DNA of 64,000 bases. Source: an uncultured Candidatus Berkelbacteria bacterium (GTDB lineage Bacteria; Patescibacteriota; UBA1384; 2-12-FULL-50-11). The stretch covers positions 15,999-79,998 of the forward strand of contig CAIMEH010000013.1 of assembly GCA_903839975.1 (NCBI GenBank). Reading direction: 5' to 3'. Within the stretch, counting starts at the first letter, position 1, and the number at the start of each line of letters is the position of its first letter. The notes beneath the pieces were generated by a model, which saw only the letters and a list, made by a program, of their open reading frames with translations, was not told where the DNA came from and did not search any database. A program made the position numbers and the translations under genes. This document shows positions 5,441-60,635 of the stretch, in pieces.

Positions 5441-5482
5441 GCCGCCATACGTCAAAACTGACGTATGGCGGCTTTTCTTTTT
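5441..5482 (+). terminator. rho-independent terminator hairpin gccgccatacgtca-aaact-gacgtatggcggc followed by a T-run
   Basis: Perfect 14-bp stem plus ttttctttttcc. Confidence 0.7.
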
Positions 5483-5506: not shown

Positions 5507-6860
5507 TATGAACGAGAAAATTTTTAAAGCTTACGACATCCGCGGGACTTATCCAGACCAGGTTAACGAAGATTCGTTTAAGAGAATTGCTCAGGCCTTC
5601 GCCATGTATATTCAACCAAAAACCGTTGCCGTTGGTCGCGACGTTCGCGTTTCCGGGCCAAGTTTGCAAAAAGCCGTTATCGAGGGACTAATTTCAATGG
5701 GCGTAAATGTCATCGACATCGGAGTCGTACCAACGGAGATGATGTACTTTGCGGTAGGCTTGCTTGGTTTGGATGGCGGTATCCAGGTTTCGGCCAGTCA
5801 CAATCCAGCTGAGTATAACGGCCTCAAGATGGTCAAAAAAGGCGTCGAGGCTATCTCAACTGATACCGGTTTATTGCAGATAAAAGAAATGGCTCTTAGC
5901 GGTCAGGAATTTTCTGCTGAAACAAAAGGTGAAGTTAGGCAGAAAGATTTAACCGACGAGTACCTAGATTACATCGCCAAGCTAGTTAATTTAAAAGATT
6001 TGCCACAACTCAAGATTGTCGCCAACGGCAACTTTGGCATGAGTGGCGTTATGGCAAAGAAGTTAATCGAGAAAATGGAGTTGCCAATCGAACTAGTTGA
6101 ACTTAACTTCGAACCAGATGGAACATTTCCAAAAGGCCGCCCCGATCCTTTAATACCAGAGAATAGGGCTGAAACTAGCGCACAAGTCAAAGAAAACGGC
6201 GCAAATATGGGAGTAGCTTGGGACGCGGATGGCGATCGTTGCTACATCGCCGACGAAAGTGGTACGTTTATAGAAGGCTGCCACATGACGGCCTTGCTCG
6301 CTGTACACTTACTCGAGAAAAATCCTAAACAAAAGATTCTCTACGACCCACGAAATATCTATGCTACTCGTGATTCAATTACCGCTACTGGCGGAATCCC
6401 GATCGAAACCAAAACTGGCCACACTTTTATCAAAAACCGCATGCGTAGCGAACAGGCACTCTTTGCCGGCGAGATGAGCGGTCACTACTACTACCGCGAT
6501 TTCTATAACGCGGATAACGGCTTGCTAACATTTCTTTATTTCCTCGAGTTAATAGCCCAGAAGAAACAAAAAGTTTCAGAAATAGCAGCCCCGCTTAGAG
6601 AAAAATACTTCGTCTCCGGTGAGATTAATTTCAAGGTTAAAGATGCCCAGACGGCGATAGAAGCTATAAAAAAAGAATATCCCGACGGCAAGATCGACAC
6701 GACCGACGGCATCTCAATCGATTTTAACAGCTGGCGATTTAATCTGCGTTCCAGTAATACCGAACCGTTACTCCGATTGAATGTAGAATCAACCGACAAA
6801 AATATCTGCGAGCAGAAAACCGCCGAGCTTCGGTCGCTGATTGAAGATCACAAAGTTTAA
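5507..6860 (+). CDS. phosphoglucomutase/phosphomannomutase family protein
   Basis: Starts MNEKIFKAYDIRG. It has the active-site SASHNP motif (VSASHNPAEYNG) and the GEMSGH motif. Confidence 0.85.
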
Positions 6861-9671: not shown

Positions 9672-9682
9672 CGTTACTTTAA

Positions 9683-9720
9683 ACAAAAACACCCCCAGTT
9701 TTGGGGGTGTTTTTGTTTGT
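9683..9720. terminator. bidirectional rho-independent terminator with 15-bp perfect stem and T-runs on both sides
   Basis: acaaaaacaccccca-gttt-tgggggtgtttttgt. Confidence 0.75.
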
Positions 9721-19322: not shown

Positions 19323-20231
19323 TTAATTACTAGCTTTGTCGTGGAATTTTTTGTGGACTTCCCGGAGGGATTTGTCGGTGATGTGGGTATAGACTTGGGT
19401 GGTAGCAATCGAGCTGTGGCCAAGTAAGGCCTGAACCGAACGAAGATCCGCACCGTTGCGTAAAAGGTCGGTAGCGAAGCTGTGACGCAGCTTGTGGGGG
19501 CTGATGGGCTTGGTGATACCAGCTGCGCGAGCATATTTATTAAGCATTCGCTGAATTGAACGTGCCGATAGGGGATTCTTCTTGTTATCTAGCTCGGGGT
19601 TGGTGAAGTGGCGGATAAATAAATACGGGTTCACGTCTTGGCGAACATCGATATAATCACCCAAATCCTCGATAGCTTCTTCTGTTAAGAAAACTGGCCG
19701 GACTTTACCGCCCTTGCCTTTAACCGAGAACTCGCCGGAGACAACGCTAACTTGGTTGCGTTTTAATTCTGTTAGCTCGCTGATACGCAAACCGGTGGAA
19801 TAAAGCATGCTATATATGGCTCGGTCACGCAGTCCTGACAGGTCACCGATTGGAATGGCGGTTCTAATCTGGGCAACTTCTTCCGGTTCCAGGAAGCTAA
19901 CTTGGCGGCCACGAGTTTTGCTCAGGGTAATTTTTTCTGGCGACATCACTTCGACGTCACGGTTGATTAAGTATTTCAGCAATGCACGGATAGCAATTAA
20001 ATAATAGTTTTGAGTCGATTTGCTTTTTCCCACCTCGTAAAGTTTTTCTATCTGAAAATCGACAATATCTTCGGCAGTTACTTGCTCAATATCAGTTATC
20101 TTTTTCTCTTCGGTCCAGTTCTCAAAAAGTGTCAGGTAGGTGGTGTAGTTGCGAACGGTGTTGGGCGAGTAGCCTTTAGAAACGACGCAGTACTTTAAGA
20201 ATTCTTTTATTGCTCTTTTTGTAGTCATTGT
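19323..20231 (-). CDS. tyrosine recombinase XerC/XerD family
   Basis: The C-terminal catalytic region has RHSFAT, LGHSSIATTQVYTH and the Tyr. Start placed at MTTKRAIKEF. Confidence 0.85.
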   Translation of the reverse strand, partial: TMTTKRAIKEFLKYCVVSKGYSPNTVRNYTTYLTLFENWTEEKKITDIEQVTAEDIVDFQIEKLYEVGKSKSTQNYYLIAIRALLKYLINRDVEVMSPEKITLSKTRGRQVSFLEPEEVAQIRTAIPIGDLSGLRDRAIYSMLYSTGLRISELTELKRNQVSVVSGEFSVKGKGGKVRPVFLTEEAIEDLGDYIDVRQDVNPYLFIRHFTNPELDNKKNPLSARSIQRMLNKYARAAGITKPISPHKLRHSFATDLLRNGADLRSVQALLGHSSIATTQVYTHITDKSLREVHKKFHDKASN

Positions 20232-20280
20232 TATATAACTCCGGTATACTTTAACACGAATTAAGATACTATTTTTTTGT

Positions 20281-20883
20281 ATGCCAAAAACCAATATAGA
20301 CTGGAAAAACGACCTAGCCGAGACAATCTCGGTGTTGGCGAACCCAGCACTAGTTATGCTCGGCGGGCTGGTGCTAATTATCTATCATTTTGCCCCTAGT
20401 ACCGACAAATTTTGGCACTGGTTGCTGATCAGTGGATTGCTTTTATTTATCCCCAGCTCACTTTACTTGGCCTATACCTGGAAAAAAGAAGACCAGATTG
20501 ATATCGATGTTTCAAAACGTCAGGACAGGTTTGTGCCGATGATGCTAATGACTTTAGGCGCGATTGTGGGGGGTTTTATGGTTCAGAGACGATTGGATAA
20601 TGAAACTATAACGGCTTTAAGTTTTACTCTTGCAGCTTTATTGATGGTTCTGACCATTACTACTTTTGTCTGGAAGATAAGTTTACACGCCGCTAGCCTG
20701 GCCACGACTGTTAGTTTGCTTGTGGCCTTCGGTGGTGCAAATTACGCTTGGCTGTATTTAGTGCTAATACCGGTAGTTTGGGCGCGCTTAACTTTAAATA
20801 AACATACGCCGGCACAGGTAACTGGCGGAACTTTGGTTGGAATAATTATCACCTTCTTGGGTGTAGGATTTTTCAAAGGATAA
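20281..20883 (+). CDS. hypothetical integral membrane protein (200 aa)
   Basis: Five to six predicted TM helices. Confidence 0.5.
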   Translation: MPKTNIDWKNDLAETISVLANPALVMLGGLVLIIYHFAPSTDKFWHWLLISGLLLFIPSSLYLAYTWKKEDQIDIDVSKRQDRFVPMMLMTLGAIVGGFMVQRRLDNETITALSFTLAALLMVLTITTFVWKISLHAASLATTVSLLVAFGGANYAWLYLVLIPVVWARLTLNKHTPAQVTGGTLVGIIITFLGVGFFKG

Positions 20884-21026: not shown

Positions 21027-22181
21027 CTATATCTCAATGTCTTGAACTACTGGGGCGGCTGGCTTTGGCGCGTCGGCCGGAGCAACTGGTGTTGAAGTCG
21101 GTATCTTTGGTGCTGGTTCGGCTAATGGCTCAACTTTTTTTATAGAATCCATTGGTTCACCTGGCTCAGTGACAGTCTTTGGTGGTTCATCAAAAGGAAT
21201 GGTGATGTGATTTTCTGGTGGTGGTGGCAAATCTACCTTTTTTTCTGCCATTGGTGCTGGCGGAGGTGGTGGTGGCAACGGAACATCAACTTTTGGTACT
21301 ACTGGCGTAGGCGAAGAAGTAACAGGTGGTGGTGGAGGTGGCAAAATCGGTTTTGGTGCGGAATCAAAAGCCGGTGGGGCTGGTGGCGGCGGAGGTGCTG
21401 GAGTAAAACTTGGAGCTGGTGGGGTTGAAGGCGAAGAGATGGGGAACATTGGCTTAGCAATTGGAGCAGGTGGCACTGGCAACGGTGGAGCAACTGGCAA
21501 CGGTGGTGGGGTTGGTCGTGGTGGCGTAACCGGCGGCATTGGCAACGGTGGCGTTGGTGTAACTGGCGCAGCTACTGGTGGTGGCGTTGGGTTCGTGAAC
21601 TGAGTTGATGGAGTGCTATTAATTGCTAGCGGCTCGGATTTTGGTGGCATGATTGGCCATGGATTAACTGTCCGTGGCGCTGCCGATGGTGGCGGTGTCG
21701 TGTTAGACGGCGCGCTCATCCACGAAGGATCTACCATTGGTTTTACAAACGGTGCTGGATTAGTCGGGGCAGATACAGGTTTAGGTGTAAAAGTTGGCTG
21801 AGTTGGTGCTACTGGTTTTGTTGGAAATGGCACAACTGGCGGCGAAAAAGGCTTGGCGTCAAAAGATGGTAGATCAATCTTTGGCGTTGGCACAGACGTT
21901 TTTGGCACGCTAAAACTTTCAACTTTTGGCAAGTCTACGTAATGAATTTCGGATTTTTCCTCTTTTTTCGTTTCGTGAATTTGTGGGGTTGTGGAGCTGG
22001 TTGGTTTCTCGCCCATAATCTCGGCGAGGTAATTTATATTAATAAGTGCGATAGCTGGCTTGCCGCCCTTGGTTAGGACGTACATACCATCTTTCTGGTT
22101 CTCGATGTCGGCAACTATACGGCTAAAATTATCACGGGCGTCCGTGAGTGGCACGATTCTGTCTATCGGAACATTAATCAT
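21027..22181 (-). CDS. Phd/YefM-like N-terminal domain fused to ~330-aa proline-rich low-complexity tail
   Basis: N-terminus MINVPIDRIVPLTDARDNFSRIVADIENQ...KPAIALININYLAEIM is antitoxin YefM-like. It is followed by PPPPLP/PTPP repeats. Confidence 0.5.
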   Translation of the reverse strand: MINVPIDRIVPLTDARDNFSRIVADIENQKDGMYVLTKGGKPAIALININYLAEIMGEKPTSSTTPQIHETKKEEKSEIHYVDLPKVESFSVPKTSVPTPKIDLPSFDAKPFSPPVVPFPTKPVAPTQPTFTPKPVSAPTNPAPFVKPMVDPSWMSAPSNTTPPPSAAPRTVNPWPIMPPKSEPLAINSTPSTQFTNPTPPPVAAPVTPTPPLPMPPVTPPRPTPPPLPVAPPLPVPPAPIAKPMFPISSPSTPPAPSFTPAPPPPPAPPAFDSAPKPILPPPPPPVTSSPTPVVPKVDVPLPPPPPPAPMAEKKVDLPPPPENHITIPFDEPPKTVTEPGEPMDSIKKVEPLAEPAPKIPTSTPVAPADAPKPAAPVVQDIEI

Positions 22182-22305
22182 TAATATCTTCTCCCCTCTA
22201 TAAAATAGACTAAAGAGTGTGGGTGGTACTGTCAATGTTTACTAAAAATAGCGCCATTTGGCAGATATTTGTCGCCCTTGCTCGTGGCCGTCATTAGGTT
22301 AGAAT

Positions 22306-25705: not shown

Positions 25706-26827
25706 TTAAGGCTTTTCGGCTTCAATAAACAATATACCGTGGTATTTTGACTCTGATGGTTTTTCGGAGTTCTTCTTGGAGATAGAAAGTATTCTGAACC
25801 CAGCTTCTGATAAATATTTTTGGGCAAAATCTTCGTCTAGATATATCGCAGGAAAGTAACTATCGCCACTTTTGTAAACAATGGCTCCCTCAAGGGCTGT
25901 CATAAGTAGAATTCCCTTGGGCTTAAGATAGGAATGTATATTATCAAGCATATTCTTGTATTCGGTAATGTCGTCAGTCGCGCTTTCGGGACAAAAGTTA
26001 GACTGTACTATATCGAAGCTATCTACTAGCTTGTCGTTGAGGTTGTTAAGGTTTAGGGGTTCGATGCTTGTAATCTTCTTTCTTAGGAGCTTGCTTCGTT
26101 CTTCAACTTCGCTTCCTCCCTTGGGCTTATCCTCTAAAGACAAGACATATCTAGTAAAGTCGTCCCATTGAAAGGCTTGGCTATTATTTTTTTGCCAATC
26201 TCTTATCTTATCTAAGTTATTTTCTGAGTAATCAGTAAAGGTTATTGATTTAACCTTATTGGCCGCCGATAGAAGTTGGTAAACCGTTGGACCGCCACCA
26301 ACTTCAAGGAGCTTGTAGCTGTCGCTTTTCATCTTGGAGTATATCTTGTTGTACCAATTTAGAATGTCTTTATTCTCTCTGCTCAATACTCGGTAATATT
26401 CTTTAAGGTATTTTTCGGGAGAGAAAGTGTCAAACGTCCTGTTTATATTCATCTGATCGTATCTAACCACAGAGCTGTAGATATTATTGTCTAGCAAGCT
26501 AAAATATTCTTTAACAAAATTTATTACCTTCTGTGAGTCGAAGTATTTACAAGAGAAAACGTCCAGGCAGAACTCACCATTCTTGGTAAAAGTATGTATT
26601 GAAATGTGAGAGAAATCGATAATCGCAAATGCAGTTACTCCGGGATTTTCAGGTATACCATCAACAACAATTGGCCCTGCTAATATTTTCATGTCAACTA
26701 AACTAGCTAGCTTTAATATCAGTGAGCTAATGGCTTTTTTGTCGGACAGCTTTTTTTCTTCGCACCCAAAGGCGTCCAAAACAATATGAAATCTTCTCGA
26801 CGTATAGCTGTCCACTCTAGCTTTCAT
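25706..26827 (-). CDS. fusion protein: class-1b S-adenosylmethionine decarboxylase (SpeH-like) N-terminal domain plus NNMT/PNMT/TEMT-family SAM-dependent methyltransferase C-terminal domain
   Basis: N-domain: HIVLDAFGC and the FSHISIHTF (ESH-like pyruvoyl site) motifs. C-domain: FSPEKYLKEYY and LLEVGGGPTVYQLLSAANKVKSITFTDYSENNL, which closely resembles the NNMT SAM-binding region. Confidence 0.7.
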   Translation of the reverse strand: MKARVDSYTSRRFHIVLDAFGCEEKKLSDKKAISSLILKLASLVDMKILAGPIVVDGIPENPGVTAFAIIDFSHISIHTFTKNGEFCLDVFSCKYFDSQKVINFVKEYFSLLDNNIYSSVVRYDQMNINRTFDTFSPEKYLKEYYRVLSRENKDILNWYNKIYSKMKSDSYKLLEVGGGPTVYQLLSAANKVKSITFTDYSENNLDKIRDWQKNNSQAFQWDDFTRYVLSLEDKPKGGSEVEERSKLLRKKITSIEPLNLNNLNDKLVDSFDIVQSNFCPESATDDITEYKNMLDNIHSYLKPKGILLMTALEGAIVYKSGDSYFPAIYLDEDFAQKYLSEAGFRILSISKKNSEKPSESKYHGILFIEAEKP

Positions 26828-31160: not shown

Positions 31161-31733
31161 ATGGACTCACATCAAATCATCCGCGACCTTAATAGCAGCA
31201 GTCTTAAAAAGACGGTTGCCGATATTCGCGTAGGTGAAACCGTTAAGGTCCACTACAAGATTCGTGAAGGCGCCAAAGAACGTATCCAGATTTTCGAAGG
31301 CCTAGTTGTTGCTACCAAAAATGGCAAGGCTTTACAGGGCAGTTTTACCGTTCGCAAAGTTGTTAGCGGAATCGGCGTCGAAAGAATTTTCCCATTGCAC
31401 TCCCCATGGATTGTTAAAATTGAGACCACTAAATCCGGTAAAGTTCGCCGTGCCAAATTAAATTTTGTTCGCAAGTACGCCACCTCTTCTAAGTTCAAAC
31501 TTAAAGACAAAGGCAAGGCTGGTTCTATTTGGGAAACTGTGGCCGAAGAACAAGAAAAAGTAGCTGAAGCTGCCGAAGAACAAGAAAGCGCTGAAGTTGC
31601 ACCGGAAGTAATCGAAGAAACTCCAGAAGTTGCAGAAGTAACCGAAACCGCCGAGAATACAGACAATGACAAAGGCGAGCAAGGAGCTGGGGAACAGGTC
31701 GGAGAATCTAGCAGCGAAGCTGTTACAGAATAA
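31161..31733 (+). CDS. rplS: 50S ribosomal protein L19 with ~70-aa acidic C-terminal extension
   Basis: L19 core ([16 protein letters not shown]...[11 protein letters not shown]). The extension is E/A-rich. Confidence 0.85.
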
Positions 31734-32028
31734 GGGTTACAAGATTGTCGCGCAGAACCTGCGCACTAAGTACGGAGAGATCGATATCCTTGCCGAAGAT
31801 GGCAAGGCTTTAGTTGTTGTCGAGGTTAAGGCCAAAACTTCCGAAAGATTTGGCTCGGCTCTGGAGATGGTCACGCCAACCAAGCAGCGCAAACTGATTC
31901 TGCTAACTGCTGAACTTCAGGCCAAACATAAAGTTGAGAATGTCCGTATTGATGTTGTTGCCGTCGACAATGCTTCTTCTGAGCCAGTCCTAAAACACTA
32001 CAAAGGCATCGTCGAATTCCACGGCTAA
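31666..32028 (+). CDS. YraN/UPF0102 family endonuclease-like protein
   Basis: [36 protein letters not shown] matches the YraN signature. It overlaps the rplS 3' end by 68 nt in another frame. Confidence 0.7.
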
Positions 32029-32085
32029 AAAGTCACTATATGTAGCTATTTTATATTAACGTTATTATTAATATTCTCAGACACA

Positions 32086-32106
32086 AATATGACCGATAGG
32101 TCATAT
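32086..32106. repeat. palindrome copy 1: aatatgacc-gat-aggtcatatt, abutting the stop of the HTH gene
   Basis: Perfect 9-bp arms with a 3-bp spacer. Confidence 0.8.
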
Positions 32107-32108
32107 TG

Positions 32109-32435
32109 CTACTTGAGGGTAATATTCAGTTTTCTATCTAAAATATCTGCATATCTTTCCAGAAAATCTAACGATGGATTAAATTTTCCAGCCTCAAATT
32201 TAGAGACAACCGACTGATAGGTTTTTAATTTGTCGGCTAGCTGTTTTTGGGTCATTCTTTTTTGCAGCCTGGCGTTACGGAAACCGCCGATCACTAACTG
32301 TCGTTTCTCTGGTACTGCCATAGGCTCGGGTTTTGGCTTGATGTAGTGAGGATTGCGGACTTTTTTGTGGCGATATACCTTCTTTGGTCCACCGGTTGTA
32401 ATAATTATAAACTCATCAACGGTGTTTAATTCCAT
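32109..32435 (-). CDS. XRE-family helix-turn-helix transcriptional regulator
   Basis: C-terminal HTH_XRE region LQKRMTQKQLADKLKTYQSVVSKFEAGKFNPSLDFLERYADIL. An alternative start at the internal Met (MAVPEKRQL) is possible. Confidence 0.7.
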   Translation of the reverse strand: MELNTVDEFIIITTGGPKKVYRHKKVRNPHYIKPKPEPMAVPEKRQLVIGGFRNARLQKRMTQKQLADKLKTYQSVVSKFEAGKFNPSLDFLERYADILDRKLNITLK

Positions 32436-32439
32436 ACAC

Positions 32440-32465
32440 TAAATATGACCCGTAGGTCATATTTA
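32440..32465. repeat. palindrome copy 2: taaatatgacc-cgt-aggtcatattta, 5 bp upstream of the HTH start codon
   Basis: Perfect 11-bp arms. Confidence 0.8.
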
Positions 32466-32549
32466 TGCAAATGTGCTAGGATGGGTGCGCAAAGGCTTAA
32501 TAAATAAACTAACATAAGAGCATTTAAACTTTACAGACGGCTTTATGGC

Positions 32550-32578
32550 TTGACTTTCAGGTTAAAAGATGCTAATCT
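32550..32578 (+). promoter_or_regulatory. sigma70-like promoter TTGACT-17-TAATCT of the DGR target gene
   Basis: cttgactttcaggttaaaagatgctaatct, with RBS aaggagg before a GTG start at 32652. Confidence 0.5.
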
Positions 32579-32651
32579 TTAGCCACTCTAATTGAGTATT
32601 TTGTTCATTTACACGACCGCGGTGCAAAGCATCGCAAGGAGGAAGTAACCC

Positions 32652-33389
32652 GTGGAAGACGGAATTACCCCTATTCAAAAACAAGTTGATCATGCTGAAA
32701 ATATGATCGAGAGGACATTTTCAAACTATCCCGACGCCAAAAGGCTTCAAAGAGCCATGGGCAATGCCGACTGGAAAAAGCGCCTATGGGCGCTAGCAGA
32801 CGAGCTTGGCTTCGACCCAACCAAAATCTTGGAACGGGCTCGTTTCGAAGTTTATGGCAAGTTTCTGGGTTTTGATTGCCCAGACTTAACCCAGCTAGCT
32901 ATCCCAGCACCTAGGAATGGTTTCAATTGGATTCGTCCAATCGTAGCAATTCACGAAAAGGCCCCAAATGAAGCTGCCTTCCAGCAGCTAAAGAAGCAGT
33001 TTGGTGATAAGGCGTGGAAGTACACCGATAAGGTGCTTGACGAGGTGATAAAAGACAACGACCGTGACCCCCTTAAAAGCGGGCCTTACGTCATCCGAGC
33101 GCGCGACCGAGTTGAAGCTGACGAGGAGCTAAAAAACTTTTCAGCTAACCAACTGACTGAGCGCAAGATTGCTGGTAACACGCTCTATGAGCGACAGATA
33201 CTTGAAGCCTTTCACTATGTGGAAACCGGTGAACATTTAGACGTGGTGAATGTTACGCTCTGTTCAGGGTCACGTGGCTCCGACGGTAGCGTCCCGGACT
33301 ACTACTGGTACAACGGCGAGTTCAGGGTCCTTTGGTACTTTCCCGACGACCACAACGACAACTTGCGTGCCCGTGAGGTGGTTTCCTAA
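32652..33389 (+). CDS. DGR target (variable) protein. The C-terminal ~40 aa are encoded by the VR; the C-terminus is C-type-lectin/FGE-like, a frequent DGR-target architecture.
   Basis: The 3' 120 bp match the TR with A-specific substitutions. The C-terminal Y/W/N-rich segment (VPDYYWYNGEFRVLWYFPDDHNDNLRAREVVS) is typical of diversified CLec ligand-binding loops. Confidence 0.8.
   Translation: MEDGITPIQKQVDHAENMIERTFSNYPDAKRLQRAMGNADWKKRLWALADELGFDPTKILERARFEVYGKFLGFDCPDLTQLAIPAPRNGFNWIRPIVAIHEKAPNEAAFQQLKKQFGDKAWKYTDKVLDEVIKDNDRDPLKSGPYVIRARDRVEADEELKNFSANQLTERKIAGNTLYERQILEAFHYVETGEHLDVVNVTLCSGSRGSDGSVPDYYWYNGEFRVLWYFPDDHNDNLRAREVVS
33267..33386 (+). repeat. DGR variable region (VR)
   Basis: 120-bp homology to the TR. 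About 20 mismatches lie almost exclusively at TR adenine positions. The last ~35 bp are invariant and IMH-like. Confidence 0.85.
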
Positions 33390-33407
33390 CCCTTCTTCCT
33401 TTTCTCT

Positions 33408-33454
33408 TTTTCCCTTGCCCAGCCCAATGTTTTGCTCTGCAAAACTAGGGCTGG
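33408..33454 (+). terminator. GC-rich hairpin (gcccagccc...gggctgggc, with a nested inner stem) plus T-run immediately 3' of the VR. This is the DGR homing-associated hairpin and the terminator of the target gene.
   Basis: Read directly from the sequence. Confidence 0.7.
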
Positions 33455-33660
33455 GCTTTCTTTATGGCCAAAATTTTAATACTGTTGTTTTGGCTACAAA
33501 ACCGGTTCGTAGTTCGTTCGAATAGCGGTTTGCCAGCATTAGGAAACTACGTGCCAAGTTCAAAGAGGGTTGCTTCTACGCATGCCTCGTAATGCATCGC
33601 GAAAAGAAAATGTTTAATTTTCTGCTTATTTTGGCTCATACAGAAGGATAAGGCACATAA

Positions 33661-33780
33661 GGGTCACGTAACTCCAACGGTAACGTCCCGAACTGCAACT
33701 GGTACAACGACAAGTTCAGGGTCAATTGGTACAATCCCGACAACCACAACGACAACTTGCGTGCCCGTGAGATAGTCTCC
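33661..33780 (+). repeat. DGR template region (TR)
   Basis: Asn-codon (AAC)-rich when read in the VR frame (GSRNSNGNVPNCNWYNDKFRVNWYNPDNHNDNLRAREIVS). It is non-coding by itself. Confidence 0.85.
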
Positions 33781-33799
33781 GAAACGAACCCCGCTGTAT

Positions 33800-34186
33800 T
33801 TAGCGGGGTTCGTGATCTAATGATTTTATCCAACCGTTAGTCATCTGTGAGATTTCCTGAAGCTCTTGCGATACTAACACATAGTTTCTTGGCTTGATTA
33901 TTTTTAGCTCATAGCTAACTCTAATTAGCCTCTTCTCTAGCTCAACCTCTCTGCGTAATTTTTTAAGGTTAGGTAGCTTCTCTTGTTTGGGTAAAAAAGC
34001 CGCCTCTACAGCCAGTGTTAAGCTGTTTAAGCACGAGTTTTCGATCCTCGTAAATATTCCTAACTTGTCCCTCTTGGGTAGACTTGAGCTAAGGCTGTAA
34101 ATCTGTTTGTATAATTCAATAATCTTATGAACAACGGGAACATCGTTTGTGGAAAACTTTCCCGAGAGAGAGAGAGGGAGAGAGAG
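33800..34186 (-). CDS. avd: Avd-like accessory variability determinant (four-helix-bundle family). The open frame is 128 codons with no canonical start codon in frame.
   Basis: Translation ...VVHKIIELYKQIYSLSSSLPKRDKLGIFTRIENSCLNS...QELQEISQMTNGWIKSLDHEPR resembles Avd/bAvd proteins, including the C-terminal I.KMLNGLIKSL-type helix. The stop codon sits in the loop of hairpin 33786-33811. Confidence 0.6.
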   Translation of the reverse strand, partial: LSLPLSLSGKFSTNDVPVVHKIIELYKQIYSLSSSLPKRDKLGIFTRIENSCLNSLTLAVEAAFLPKQEKLPNLKKLRREVELEKRLIRVSYELKIIKPRNYVLVSQELQEISQMTNGWIKSLDHEPR

Positions 34187-35184
34187 CTAAAAGAGTCTTT
34201 TTCCATGAAGGTACTTTCGCAAAAATAATCTCTTTAGACAACCTATTCTTGGCATGGGCGAATTATTGTAAGGGCAAGAGGAGTAAAGATGATGTTCAGA
34301 AATTTGAATTTTCGCTAGAAGACAATATTTTCCAGCTTCATAACGAGTTGCTAGCGCACAAATACAGTCCAGGAAAATACCAACAATTTTTAATCACTGA
34401 CCCCAAAAAGCGAGTCATAAGCAAAGCACTGGTTCGCGATCGTTTGCTTCATCAAGCGATTTATCAGATTCTTTATCCGCTCTACGACAAAACTTTTATT
34501 TTTGATAGCTATTCATGTCGCAACGGTAAAGGAACGCACAAAGCATTTGCTCGGCTTGTTTCCATGACGCAAAAAGTCAGTCGCAGCTACACCGCACCTT
34601 GTTGGGCGTTGAAGATGGATATTAGAAGGTTTTTTGACAGTATCGACCACGAAACTTTGCTTGAGCTTCTTGGGCAAAGAATAAACGATGCTTACTTAAT
34701 GACGCTACTGGAAAATATTGTAAGAAGCTTTGAATTCAGCCCAGGCAAGGGTATGCCACTTGGAAATCTAACTAGTCAGCTTTTTGCCAATATCTACATG
34801 GATCCGTTAGATAAATTCTTAAAACACAAACTAAATGCTAAATACTATCTGCGCTACGCCGATGATTTTGCAGTTGTCTCGTCAGACCATGATGAATTAC
34901 TTGGGTATTTTATTGAGATAAATAGTTTTCTTAAAGAAAAACTAAAACTATCGTTCCATCCGAATAAAATTGGTCTCCGTAAATTAAGCTGGGGCATTGA
35001 TTTTGTCGGCTATGTGGCGTTACCGCACTATCAATTACCAAGAAATAAAACCGTAAAGCGAATATTGAAGAAAGTCGCAAAATCTTCCGAAGAGGAATTG
35101 TCAAAAACTTTGCCGTCGTACCTTGGCTATCTTAACCACGCTTCAAGCCACAAAGTTACTAAAAAAATAATGCCTTCTACCTAG
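34147..35184 (+). CDS. DGR reverse transcriptase; TTG start as in the ORF track, true N-terminus uncertain
   Basis: RT motifs: DGR-specific LGNLTSQLFANIY (I/LGxxxSQ in motif 4), catalytic YADD (YLRYADDFAV), and the motif 1/2 region (RVISKALVRDRLLHQAIY). Confidence 0.9.
   Translation: MWKTFPREREGERAKRVFFHEGTFAKIISLDNLFLAWANYCKGKRSKDDVQKFEFSLEDNIFQLHNELLAHKYSPGKYQQFLITDPKKRVISKALVRDRLLHQAIYQILYPLYDKTFIFDSYSCRNGKGTHKAFARLVSMTQKVSRSYTAPCWALKMDIRRFFDSIDHETLLELLGQRINDAYLMTLLENIVRSFEFSPGKGMPLGNLTSQLFANIYMDPLDKFLKHKLNAKYYLRYADDFAVVSSDHDELLGYFIEINSFLKEKLKLSFHPNKIGLRKLSWGIDFVGYVALPHYQLPRNKTVKRILKKVAKSSEEELSKTLPSYLGYLNHASSHKVTKKIMPST
34164..34186. repeat. (GA)n / (CT)n dinucleotide microsatellite at the divergent overlap of the RT and Avd N-termini
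   Basis: gagagagagagagggagagagag. Confidence 0.9.
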
Positions 35185-35221
35185 CTACTTTTGGTTGCAC
35201 AAATTTTTTATCTTACTTGAA

Positions 35222-35255
35222 GGCATAAATATGACCTATAGGTCATATTTATGCC
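35222..35255. repeat. palindrome copy 3: ggcataaatatgacc-tat-ggtcatatttatgcc, lying between the RT stop and gltX
   Basis: Perfect 15-bp arms. It shares the core aaatatgacc/ggtcatattt with copies 1 and 2. Confidence 0.8.
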
Positions 35256-35308
35256 AATAGTTATCATTGAGTGAAGCCAGAAACCCCAAAAACAGGTACA
35301 ATACAAAC

Positions 35309-36769
35309 ATGGAAAACGAAGAAATCAGAGTTCGATTTGCCCCGTCACCAACCGGCAAATTCCACATTGGTAGTGCCAGAACGGCTCTGTTCAACTATCT
35401 TTTTGCCAAGAAAATGGGCGGCAAGTTTATTCTGCGTATCGAAGACACCGACAAAGAACGTAGCAGCGAAGAATATACCCAAGACATTATCAACTCACTT
35501 CTCTGGCTGGGTATCGGTTGGGACGAAGGTCCGCAGGTTGGTGGCGAGTACGGCCCGTATTTTCAGACCCAACGCCTAGGTTCGTACAAAAAATTTGCCG
35601 ACAAACTTTTAGAGGACAAAAAAGCCTACAAGTGTTTTTGCACGGCAGAAGAACTTGAAGCAGAGCGAACCGCTCAACACGCTGCCAAGCAAGCACCAAA
35701 GTACTCTGGCAAATGTCGCAATCTGACCCCTGAACAAGTAGCCGAGAACGAGAAGGCCGGCAAGCCGTTTGCTATCCGTTTTATCACCCAAGAGAAGAAG
35801 GTAGATTTTGACGATCTGATCAAAGGTCATATCAGTTACGACGCAGGGTTAATAGGCGATTTTACAATCGTTCGTTCCGACGGCATGCCACTTTTCACTT
35901 TCGCAGTTGTTGTTGACGATTACGAGATGAAAATCAGCCACGTTTTGCGAGGCGAAGAACATCTGCCAAACGCCGCCAAACATATTCTGATTGCTGAAGC
36001 AATGCAGATTATGCCACCGCAGTTTGGCCACATGCCGTTAATTTTGAATACCGACAAAACCAAGATGAGTAAGCGCAAAGATCCAGTTTCTGTGACCGAC
36101 GACTATCGGGCCAAAGGCTACCTGCCAGACGCCTTGGTTAACTTTATCGCCTTGCTCGGTTGGAATAACACCGACGATCAAGAAATTTATTCCATGAAAG
36201 AGCTGATTCAGGAGTTCCAGATCGAGCGTGTCGGCAAAAGTCCATCCATCTTTGATCGCGAAAAATTGCTTTGGATGAATGGTTTGTACATCCGCCATCT
36301 AACTGTTGGCGAGTTGGCATCGCAAGCCCAGAATTTTATTACCGACAAAGAGTTGGAAGATAAGATTATGGAGCGGCCAGATTTCTACCTTCAGGCTGTG
36401 GCTCTGGTTCAAGATCGCTTAAAATTACTCAGCGAAGTTCAGGAGATGATTAAGTTTTTCTTCTTCCCGCAAGAGTATGATGCCGAAGTTTTGATCGCCA
36501 AAAAATCAGATAAAACACGCACAGCTTTGGCTCTAAAGCTGGCCGAGGAAGAACTGGCCAAACTAACCAAATTCTCTCACGACGAGACCGAATCAACTCT
36601 GCGAGCCGCCGCTCAAGTTAACGAGCTGCAAGCCGGTGAAATTTTATGGTCGGTTCGTGCCGCCCTTTCCGGAAGTTCTGCATCGCCAGGAGTATTCGAA
36701 TTACTCGAGGTATTCGGCAAAGACGAATCCCTAAAACGCATCGCCACTGCCCGCACAAAACTTGCCTAA
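35309..36769 (+). CDS. gltX: glutamyl-tRNA synthetase
   Basis: MENEEIRVRFAPSPTGKFHIGSART (HIGH-type motif) and KMSKRK (KMSKS motif). Confidence 0.9.
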   Translation: MENEEIRVRFAPSPTGKFHIGSARTALFNYLFAKKMGGKFILRIEDTDKERSSEEYTQDIINSLLWLGIGWDEGPQVGGEYGPYFQTQRLGSYKKFADKLLEDKKAYKCFCTAEELEAERTAQHAAKQAPKYSGKCRNLTPEQVAENEKAGKPFAIRFITQEKKVDFDDLIKGHISYDAGLIGDFTIVRSDGMPLFTFAVVVDDYEMKISHVLRGEEHLPNAAKHILIAEAMQIMPPQFGHMPLILNTDKTKMSKRKDPVSVTDDYRAKGYLPDALVNFIALLGWNNTDDQEIYSMKELIQEFQIERVGKSPSIFDREKLLWMNGLYIRHLTVGELASQAQNFITDKELEDKIMERPDFYLQAVALVQDRLKLLSEVQEMIKFFFFPQEYDAEVLIAKKSDKTRTALALKLAEEELAKLTKFSHDETESTLRAAAQVNELQAGEILWSVRAALSGSSASPGVFELLEVFGKDESLKRIATARTKLA

Positions 36770-46411: not shown

Positions 46412-46449
46412 CAGCCATACGTCATATATGACGTATGGCTGTTTGTGTT
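46412..46449 (+). terminator. rho-independent terminator cagccatacgtcatat-atgacgtatggctg followed by a T-run; sequence-related to the terminator at 5441
   Basis: 30-bp perfect palindrome followed by tttgtgtt. Confidence 0.7.
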
Positions 46450-59948: not shown

Positions 59949-60635
59949 CTATCCCAGCAGGGATAGGCCTCTTTCTATAAATTCGTTAATATCTTTAATT
60001 GCAATATCGGTAAGTTCCTTTTGAGATTTCACCAACTCAGGATAGTTATGGTCGGTATAAGCACCGGTTTTGTCCCAAGGCCATAAGCTTTTTAATACAG
60101 GGTCTAATCCAGTAATTGCAAATGCATATATTTCTGCAAGTTTCCAAGTGATTTGGTCTGGTACGTCTGGATAACCCGAGCGCATTTTAGAAAAAAATTG
60201 GGTAATTACTAATTCGTGAGCTGTAATTCGTCGTTGTTCTCTGAAATCTTTATTCCATATACGCGCAACTTTATTTCCGCCCCAATTACTTATTCCTGGA
60301 TGGAATAAACTGACAACACATTCATAATTCTTATGAGCGAGCGGAAATTTTGTTAGTTCGGCAAGGCGCTTGAAAAATTTTTCATCAATTTCATCCCAAC
60401 CTTTTTGGTATTCAGATATTACTTTGTCTAGTTTGTCACCAGTTTCTGAATATCTTTTGTCGACAATCTTTTCAGAAAGTTTTTTATCACCTCTCGCAAT
60501 CCTTTTTGCATCTCCCGTATTAATATTCATAACTTGAGCATATTCAAGAATACCTTCTTCGCTTCTGCCCTGAAGCATTATAGAAATCATCTCGGTGTCG
60601 TATTCTTTGTCTTTAATAAATTTAAGTAGTGACAT
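59949..60635 (-). CDS. hypothetical protein (228 aa), convergent with maturase B
   Basis: ORF that shares the upstream motif ttttgacgcggagggggag with the HExxH gene. Confidence 0.45.
   Translation of the reverse strand: MSLLKFIKDKEYDTEMISIMLQGRSEEGILEYAQVMNINTGDAKRIARGDKKLSEKIVDKRYSETGDKLDKVISEYQKGWDEIDEKFFKRLAELTKFPLAHKNYECVVSLFHPGISNWGGNKVARIWNKDFREQRRITAHELVITQFFSKMRSGYPDVPDQITWKLAEIYAFAITGLDPVLKSLWPWDKTGAYTDHNYPELVKSQKELTDIAIKDINEFIERGLSLLG

Follow-up and report, generated by a model that had tools for sequence, protein, structure and literature searches.

Repeated palindromes at the edges of a diversity-generating retroelement island in a Patescibacteria genome are candidate operators of an XRE-family repressor

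INTRODUCTION

Autoregulated repressors of the Cro/CI (XRE) family act through multiple operators, as in the case of lambda CI, which loops the DNA between OR and OL over ~2.4 kb. The controller (C) proteins of restriction-modification (R-M) systems, with C-boxes around a TATA-like centre, and the HigA/HipB-type antitoxins are further examples. Sites of another kind, of the att, dif, and pdif type, flank integrated modules, as in Xer-using integrating elements and the pdif modules of Acinetobacter. Here, we describe a palindrome that is present in three copies (pal1, pal2, and pal3) in a 64,000-nt stretch of DNA (hereafter, the window) from an uncultured Candidatus Berkelbacteria bacterium of the Patescibacteria (assembly GCA_903839975.1, contig CAIMEH010000013.1, positions 15,999 to 79,998 of the forward strand). 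All copies lie in an island, inserted between yraN and gltX, that carries a gene for an XRE-family helix-turn-helix (HTH) protein and a diversity-generating retroelement (DGR). Our favoured reading, which we hold with about even confidence, is that the palindromes are operators of a dimeric DNA-binding protein, most likely the adjacent XRE-family protein. In kind the element is ordinary, a repressor operator set, and its layout at the edges of a DGR island is mildly unusual.

As with the Cro/CI-type repressors, the candidate regulator is a small HTH_3 protein, the sites are perfect dyads with variable central bases, one site lies in the regulator's own core promoter, and the distal sites are hundreds to thousands of bp away, at loopable distances. 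Unlike in those systems, the distal sites are at the edges of an insertion and not at another promoter, a DGR takes the place of phage, R-M, or toxin genes as cargo, and the XRE protein has a 45-residue N-terminal extension.

RESULTS

Three copies of one palindrome are clustered in the island

A search of the window with the pattern AAATATGACC-N4-GGTCATATTT gave exactly three matches, at positions 32085-32108 (pal1; one mismatch, spacer GATA), 32441-32464 (pal2; no mismatch, spacer CGTA), and 35227-35250 (pal3; no mismatch, spacer TATA), whereas 0.01 was expected by chance and none of 100 shuffles yielded three. The consensus core is AAATATGACC-N4-GGTCATATT(T/G), and the copies span 24-34 bp (Table 1). 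No further copy of the N4 core was found in the remaining 60.8 kb of the window (~55 intergenic regions), and the two lone exact ATATGACC octamers outside the palindromes matched the chance prediction. The original prediction, made by reading the window, of three palindromes in the order pal1-HTH-pal2-target-TR-avd-RT-pal3 (TR, template repeat; RT, reverse transcriptase) is borne out by these matches. It was also right about the arm lengths (11-bp arms in pal2 and a perfect 34-bp palindrome in pal3) and about the placement of pal1 next to the HTH stop codon (32109-32111), of pal2 4-5 bp from the HTH ATG (32433-32435) and 85 bp away from the target-promoter -35 box (32550), and of pal3 between the RT stop (35184) and the gltX ATG (35309). 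The 3-nt spacer that it had assigned has to be corrected: the N3 pattern gave no match even with three mismatches, and the true spacer is 4 nt.

Across pal1, pal2, and pal3, 59 of the 60 arm positions are identical, whereas variation occurs at two of the four spacer positions; compensatory changes are absent. Arms that are fixed around a free spacer, with no compensatory changes, are the pattern of sequence readout by a symmetric dimer and not of a structure-only hairpin. The dimensions of the sites, with invariant 10-bp arms and a variable 4-bp centre, likewise fit a dimer. The distance between pal1 and pal2 is 356 bp (~34 helical turns, in phase), and that between pal2 and pal3 is 2.8 kb. 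Furthermore, pal2 and pal3 form a 33-nt direct repeat (91% identity) flanking exactly the conserved DGR cassette. A relaxed scan also detected a candidate degenerate fourth site within codons 16-24 of the DGR target gene. Since matches of this quality are expected only 0.04 times per window and ~0.002 times per island, this site is improbable by chance.

Table 1. Positions of the palindromes, genes, and predicted promoters of the island and its flanks (window coordinates)
Feature	Position	Strand	Description
pal1	32085..32108	.	AAATATGACC-GATA-GGTCATATTG; between convergent yraN and HTH stop codons
pal2	32440..32465	.	11-bp arms, spacer CGTA; overlaps predicted HTH-gene core promoter
pal3	35222..35255	.	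Perfect 34-bp palindrome, 37 bp past RT stop
Candidate degenerate fourth site	32699..32722	.	AAATATGATC-GAGA-GGACATTTTC, full AAATATGATCGAGAGGACATTTTC; 4 mismatches, same spacing
XRE-family HTH protein gene	32109..32435	-	108 aa; HTH_3 at residues 53-103 (Pfam)
Predicted leaderless HTH promoter	32442..32471	-	-35 TTTGCA (32471-32466), 18 nt, -10 CATATT (32447-32442), 6 nt, ATG
Inserted island	32029..35275	.	~3.25 kb between yraN and native gltX leader plus gene
yraN	31666-32028	+	UPF0102 by Pfam
gltX	ATG at 35309	+	Native leader retained
DGR target promoter	32550..32578	+	TTGACT, 17 nt, TGc-TAATCT; conserved in L083 and L084
DGR target gene	32652..33389	+	245 aa; variable repeat (VR) 33266-33389
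Template repeat (TR)	33660..33783	+	From TR/VR comparison
avd	33803..34130	-	bAvd family (Pfam); no ATG, GTG, or TTG start codon
DGR reverse transcriptase	34147..35184	+	RVT_1 (Pfam)

pal2 overlaps the predicted promoter of the XRE gene

Read on the minus strand, the predicted HTH promoter (TTTGCA-18-CATATT-6-ATG) has pal2 at positions -29 to -6, an overlap established by sequence analysis only. Leaderless starts such as this one look normal in this organism, because a TANNNT hexamer is present at -11 to -14 in about a third of the long open reading frames (ORFs) of the window (~15 of 44, against ~8% expected); upstream of gltX, the sequence is TACAAT-6-ATG. Because pal2 lies in the spacer and -10 region of the leaderless promoter, an XRE dimer bound there would block RNA polymerase and so exert negative autoregulation.

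The XRE protein is a near-orphan. Among 5.8 billion proteins, only the protein itself and one distant homologue, P0002 (locus L082; 52% identity over the HTH), were found, and searches of PDB, NCBIfam, and PADLOC gave only generic XRE or MBF1-like matches. The AlphaFold2 single-sequence model was of low confidence, with a predicted local distance difference test score (pLDDT) of 44.6. The promoter of P0002 in L082 is TTGACA-17-TATAAA-6-ATG, and a palindrome, TATAACAT-TT-ATGTTATA, extends across its spacer and -10 box. Promoters that keep their architecture while the site and the recognition helix both change are typical of co-evolving repressor/operator pairs, and this likeness, drawn from a single homologue, provides the best comparative support for the XRE-operator reading. 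At the level of sequence analysis, these results support autoregulation of the XRE gene.

In the same reading, pal1 (56 bp from the left end of the insertion) and pal3 (~20 bp from its right end), both within the inserted DNA, may be auxiliary operators, and could strengthen repression by DNA looping. Alternatively, when bound, they could act as roadblocks that part island transcription from host yraN and gltX, the ATG of the latter being 54 bp from pal3. In addition, each palindrome carries a -35-like hexamer 18 nt upstream of CATATT on one strand (on the minus strand of pal3, TTGGCA-18-CATATT, with 9 of 12 consensus positions), and on these grounds it is a speculation that pal1 and pal3 may drive repressor-controlled antisense transcripts.

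Leaderless-type ORFs without a Shine-Dalgarno sequence were seen at several places in the window (e.g., 59949-60635, 47915, 25706-26827, and gltX at 35309), a sign that leaderless mRNAs may be common across this genome.

The palindromes differ from the terminators of the window

In forming stable hairpins between genes, with two copies located downstream of a gene, the palindromes are reminiscent of intrinsic terminators and of repetitive extragenic palindromic (REP) elements. The palindromes could accordingly function as nucleic-acid hairpins, that is, as terminators, as stabilizers of mRNA 3' ends, or as insulators against read-through into the split host operon or the island. The positions of pal1, between convergent genes, and of pal3, after the RT stop, are typical of terminators, and the predicted RNA hairpins are stable (-12.6 to -23.9 kcal/mol; z-scores of -4 to -7). 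However, none of the copies is followed by a U-tract, and a terminator scan called none of them. The clear terminators of the window (9681-9718, 5441-5472, and 46412-46441) have G+C-rich stems and T-runs, whereas the palindromes are AT-rich and clustered. For pal2, which separates two divergent genes, there is no call for a terminator, and its position upstream of the predicted leaderless start would keep it out of the transcript. Identical arms without compensatory changes are unnecessary for a mere hairpin, and a search of the palindrome sites against Rfam yielded nothing apart from a sub-threshold, spurious microRNA match on pal3 alone. We regard a hairpin function as unlikely.

A second palindrome family, GCCATACGTCA-N4-TGACGTATGGC, has perfect copies at 5441-5472 and 46412-46441. 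Both copies are just past a stop codon and are followed by a T-run, so they are terminator-like. Twenty-four arm bases are identical between the two, against a chance expectation of 0.

The island is an insertion between yraN and gltX

The island interrupts a block, rpmA-rplS-yraN-gltX, that is otherwise contiguous in related Patescibacteria, and its G+C content is 0.37-0.42, compared with 0.45-0.50 in the flanks. In the closest relatives found, L086 and L087 (GltX 72-73% identical), the arrangement is dnaE / rpmA-rplS-yraN-gltX with a yraN-gltX gap of 49 and 0 bp, respectively, and the more distant relative L088 (66%) has the same contiguous arrangement. Neither the palindrome nor a half-site was found at the yraN-gltX junction of these three relatives, and in the close relatives the 12-15 kb around the junction contained no copy of the palindrome. 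Since the final ~33 bp ahead of the window gltX ATG resemble the native spacer of L086, the insertion was delimited to 32029 to ~35275. The original prediction had offered, as its alternative to operators, that the palindromes mark an inserted module; as to location this was correct, the genes being 0-49 bp apart with no palindrome between them in the relatives. As a side observation, ribosomal protein L19 (31161-31733) has a ~70-residue acidic C-terminal extension, which also occurs in the relatives (185-202 aa in L086-L088).

Short inverted-arm sites that bound gene modules in an insertion are shared with the att/dif/pdif class, and the palindromes might serve in recombination or mobility, either as sites resembling att, dif, or pdif or as the hairpin ends of a non-autonomous element, and would then mark how the HTH module and the DGR cassette came to be assembled and inserted between yraN and gltX. 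The synteny with L086-L088 and the direct repeats that pal2 and pal3 form around exactly the conserved cassette are as expected of insertion-flanking sites. All copies lie within the insertion, with pal1 and pal3 close to its ends, the palindrome, read as 9-6-9 or 14-6-14, looks like a tyrosine-recombinase core site, and an Xer-like recombinase gene is located 12 kb from the island. On the other hand, no recombinase or transposase was found among the island genes (ORF list and Pfam), and the geometry (10-bp arms around 4 nt, or 9-6-9 with centres that are not identical) differs from that of the known sites. Strand exchange between copies was ruled incompatible because the central bases (GATA, CGTA, and TATA) are not identical. 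Beyond the palindromes, the ends of the island have no significant terminal inverted or direct repeats (103/500 and 87/500 shuffles reach the observed score), no GC-skew switch indicative of a dif locus occurs at the island, and related DGR cassettes elsewhere are without flanking repeats. Conserved arms with a free spacer also fit selection for binding and not the decay of a relic. Recombination sites are thus, in our judgement, an improbable explanation, on a par with hairpins.

The Xer-type tyrosine recombinase gene (Phage_integrase plus a SAM-like N domain; 19323-20294, minus strand) has as its neighbour a gene for a 402-aa protein with a weak Phd/YefM-like N-terminus (21027-22235, minus strand).

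The same core occurs at regulator genes in many phyla

The core AATATGACC-N4-GGTCATATT was found at at least 80 genome loci, at least 120 metagenome loci, and one viral contig, in many phyla; the counts that follow hold among the matches listed (80 genome, 120 metagenome, and 1 viral; n=201). A TetR-family gene lies within 400 bp of the core at 118 of these 201 loci, and the encoded proteins have Pfam TetR_N and TetR_C_13/C_5-like domains. In some Bacteroidota loci (e.g., L117 and L209) the order is pal-TetR-pal-hydrolase-pal-SDR (SDR, short-chain dehydrogenase/reductase), with one site per promoter. The core is also located 28 bp upstream of an ArsR gene in Zixibacteria, 1-22 bp upstream of Phd/YefM antitoxin genes in three Proteobacteria, and 78 bp upstream of a PaaX-like gene in a Saccharibacteria contig (L036). 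Loci of the Phd/YefM type are L048, L050, and L072, and those of the ArsR type are L025, L049, L098, and L197. Since the promoters at which the core usually lies are next to genes encoding dimeric DNA-binding proteins (TetR, and also ArsR and Phd/YefM), these results support the view that sequences of this class work as operators bound by symmetric dimers. Because unrelated regulator families use the same core, however, the core sequence by itself fails to identify which protein binds in the island.

Searches for relatives of the island itself in this material were negative. With the HTH, RT, Avd, and target proteins of the window as queries, tblastn gave no match in the 80 listed genome loci that carry the core, the 22-base pattern specific to pal2 and pal3 had no match in metagenome contigs, and viral contigs contained one unrelated core match and no relatives of the HTH or target proteins. 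The original prediction had asked whether the motif is restricted to this locus, and the answer is mixed: the motif is not dispersed within the window, but the core is abundant, next to other regulators, in unrelated bacteria without this HTH protein or any DGR.

The sites of the island resemble the TetR operators ATATGACC-N4-GGTCATAT (TetR_N plus TetR_C_13/C_5-like; Bacteroidota, Desulfobacterota, and others) in the 18-base core with its free 4-nt spacer and in the presence, at some of the TetR loci, of multiple sites around the regulator gene, which in L117 and L209 number one per promoter. The palindromes could therefore be operators for a regulator encoded elsewhere in the genome (e.g., of TetR, ArsR, or PaaX type), with the XRE protein binding something else; an identical core is the promoter-proximal palindrome of TetR genes at more than half of the loci listed, and it recurs at the ArsR, Phd/YefM, and PaaX-like genes. 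However, no TetR-like gene was detected in the 64-kb window (tblastn and a profile from 29 neighbouring TetR proteins). The TetR sites each precede a gene start on the same strand, whereas in the island only pal2 does. Moreover, the window has no such site outside the island with the XRE gene, and pal2 lies in the XRE gene's own promoter, where the homologue P0002 has its palindrome. We give this explanation a small chance.

In Treponema spp. (L011, L024, L028, L044, L053, L061, and L071), hairpins with 14-20-bp stems occur on several contigs per genome. Their sequence is CCGCGCAGAAA(T/C)AATATGACC-N4-GGTCATATT(A/G)TTTCTGCGCGG, and they look like a REP-like family around the same core as the TetR operators.

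The palindromes might likewise belong to a genome-wide, REP-like dispersed family not linked specifically to either the HTH gene or the DGR, given that Treponema genomes contain many long hairpins of the very same core and that a second conserved palindrome family is present in this genome, its two copies 41 kb apart. Against dispersal, all copies lie within 3.2 kb with none in the other 60.8 kb, the close relatives have none at the homologous junction or within 12-15 kb, and only one locus in a genome of candidate phyla radiation (CPR) type is among the matches listed. A dispersed family is, in our view, very improbable.

The DGR cassette is shared with other Patescibacteria, and the palindromes are not

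The DGR is genuine, with an RT, Avd, and a TR/VR pair whose differences are adenine-specific (15 of 18 at TR adenines). Unlike the leaderless-type ORFs of the window, the target gene carries a strong AAGGAGG. Relatives of the RT in other Patescibacteria are 69-73% identical, and their loci (L083, L084, and L085) have the target(+)/avd(-)/RT(+) layout of the window at unrelated genomic sites, with homologous target proteins (46% identical). The promoter TTGAC(T)-17-TGCTAnnnT is shared by the cassettes (L083:4250-4493, L084:4200-4475, and window 32540-32590). Because the target promoter is conserved across unrelated insertion sites, the compact cassette, ~2.6 kb from promoter to RT stop, appears to move as a unit with no visible mobility gene or flanking repeat. 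Neither the XRE gene nor repeated edge palindromes were found in the related cassettes L083, L084, and L085, and no flanking repeats were found around these sister cassettes. Since the related cassettes are without both and the empty yraN-gltX junctions are without palindromes, the palindromes and the XRE gene are, by this comparison, an accessory specific to this island and present together.

Control of the DGR by the XRE protein, which the original prediction had proposed together with autoregulation, is only suggested by the layout of the sites, whereas the autoregulation part of the claim is supported by the position of pal2 in the HTH promoter and the likeness to P0002. At about -133 relative to the predicted target start, with 85 bp separating it from the -35 box, pal2 is too far upstream for simple occlusion of the target promoter. 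The degenerate fourth site lies at about +125 from the same start. The only hint of DGR control comes from these two sites, because they bracket the target promoter like loop-forming operator pairs, and such bracketing could permit loop-mediated repression of the DGR.

Several other features of the cassettes were noted. The avd frame has no start codon where its L083 homologue starts (TTG), and either an ATT start or a defective gene is possible. A (GA)n-rich tract, gagagagagagagggagagagag, at 34164-34186 in the divergent region between avd and RT reads REREGER at the N-terminus of the annotated RT ORF. GC-rich hairpins directly follow VR (33417-33456) and TR (33784-33813), and L083 has a hairpin after TR (5596-5618); such hairpins are typical of the ends of DGR targets and templates. 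In L083, a Phd/YefM-ParE toxin-antitoxin pair (L083:3756-4249) holds the divergent slot that the XRE gene has in the window, and the shared intergenic region contains direct repeats (TGAGTGAAA...).

DISCUSSION

The terminator, REP-like, and att-site readings are weaker than the reading of the palindromes as operators of the XRE protein. The sites, their clustering, the insertion, and, by sequence analysis only, the promoter overlap are observed, whereas the identity of the binding protein, the looping between sites, and any effect on the DGR are inferred.

Several points weigh against this reading. None of the 201 external loci listed has an XRE gene near the core, and most of them carry TetR. 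The co-occurrence of regulator and sites rests on one island, and the portion of the genome searched for copies amounts to 64 kb. Within the island, pal1 faces no gene start and pal3 overlaps no convincing gene promoter. The start codon of the HTH gene is a predicted one, with Met39 as an alternative. As to the DGR, direct control is not evident because of the 85 bp between pal2 and the target -35 box, and pal2 and the fourth site, 258 bp (24.6 turns) apart, do not share a helical phase.

A more far-reaching idea, to which we assign only a slim likelihood, is that the island is a self-contained, switchable hypermutation module or, alternatively, that the palindromes serve to move compact CPR DGR cassettes between genomes. 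In such a module, one XRE repressor would act on operators at both edges of the insertion, at its own promoter, and inside the target gene. The whole 3.2-kb DGR would be looped, so that mutagenic retrohoming would start only on inactivation of the repressor, and the host operon split by the island, rplS-yraN/gltX, would be insulated. To our knowledge, little has been established about how and when DGRs are turned on, and a literature search found no dedicated DGR repressor. If real, a switchable module would represent the first description of a transcriptional switch dedicated to a DGR.

The locus also carries a caution for inference from motifs, in that an 18-base perfect palindrome that looks specific to one locus serves several unrelated regulator families across phyla. 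If the XRE protein does bind these sites, the island would offer a compact and testable case of a regulator paired with a DGR in the ultra-small genome of a member of the Patescibacteria.

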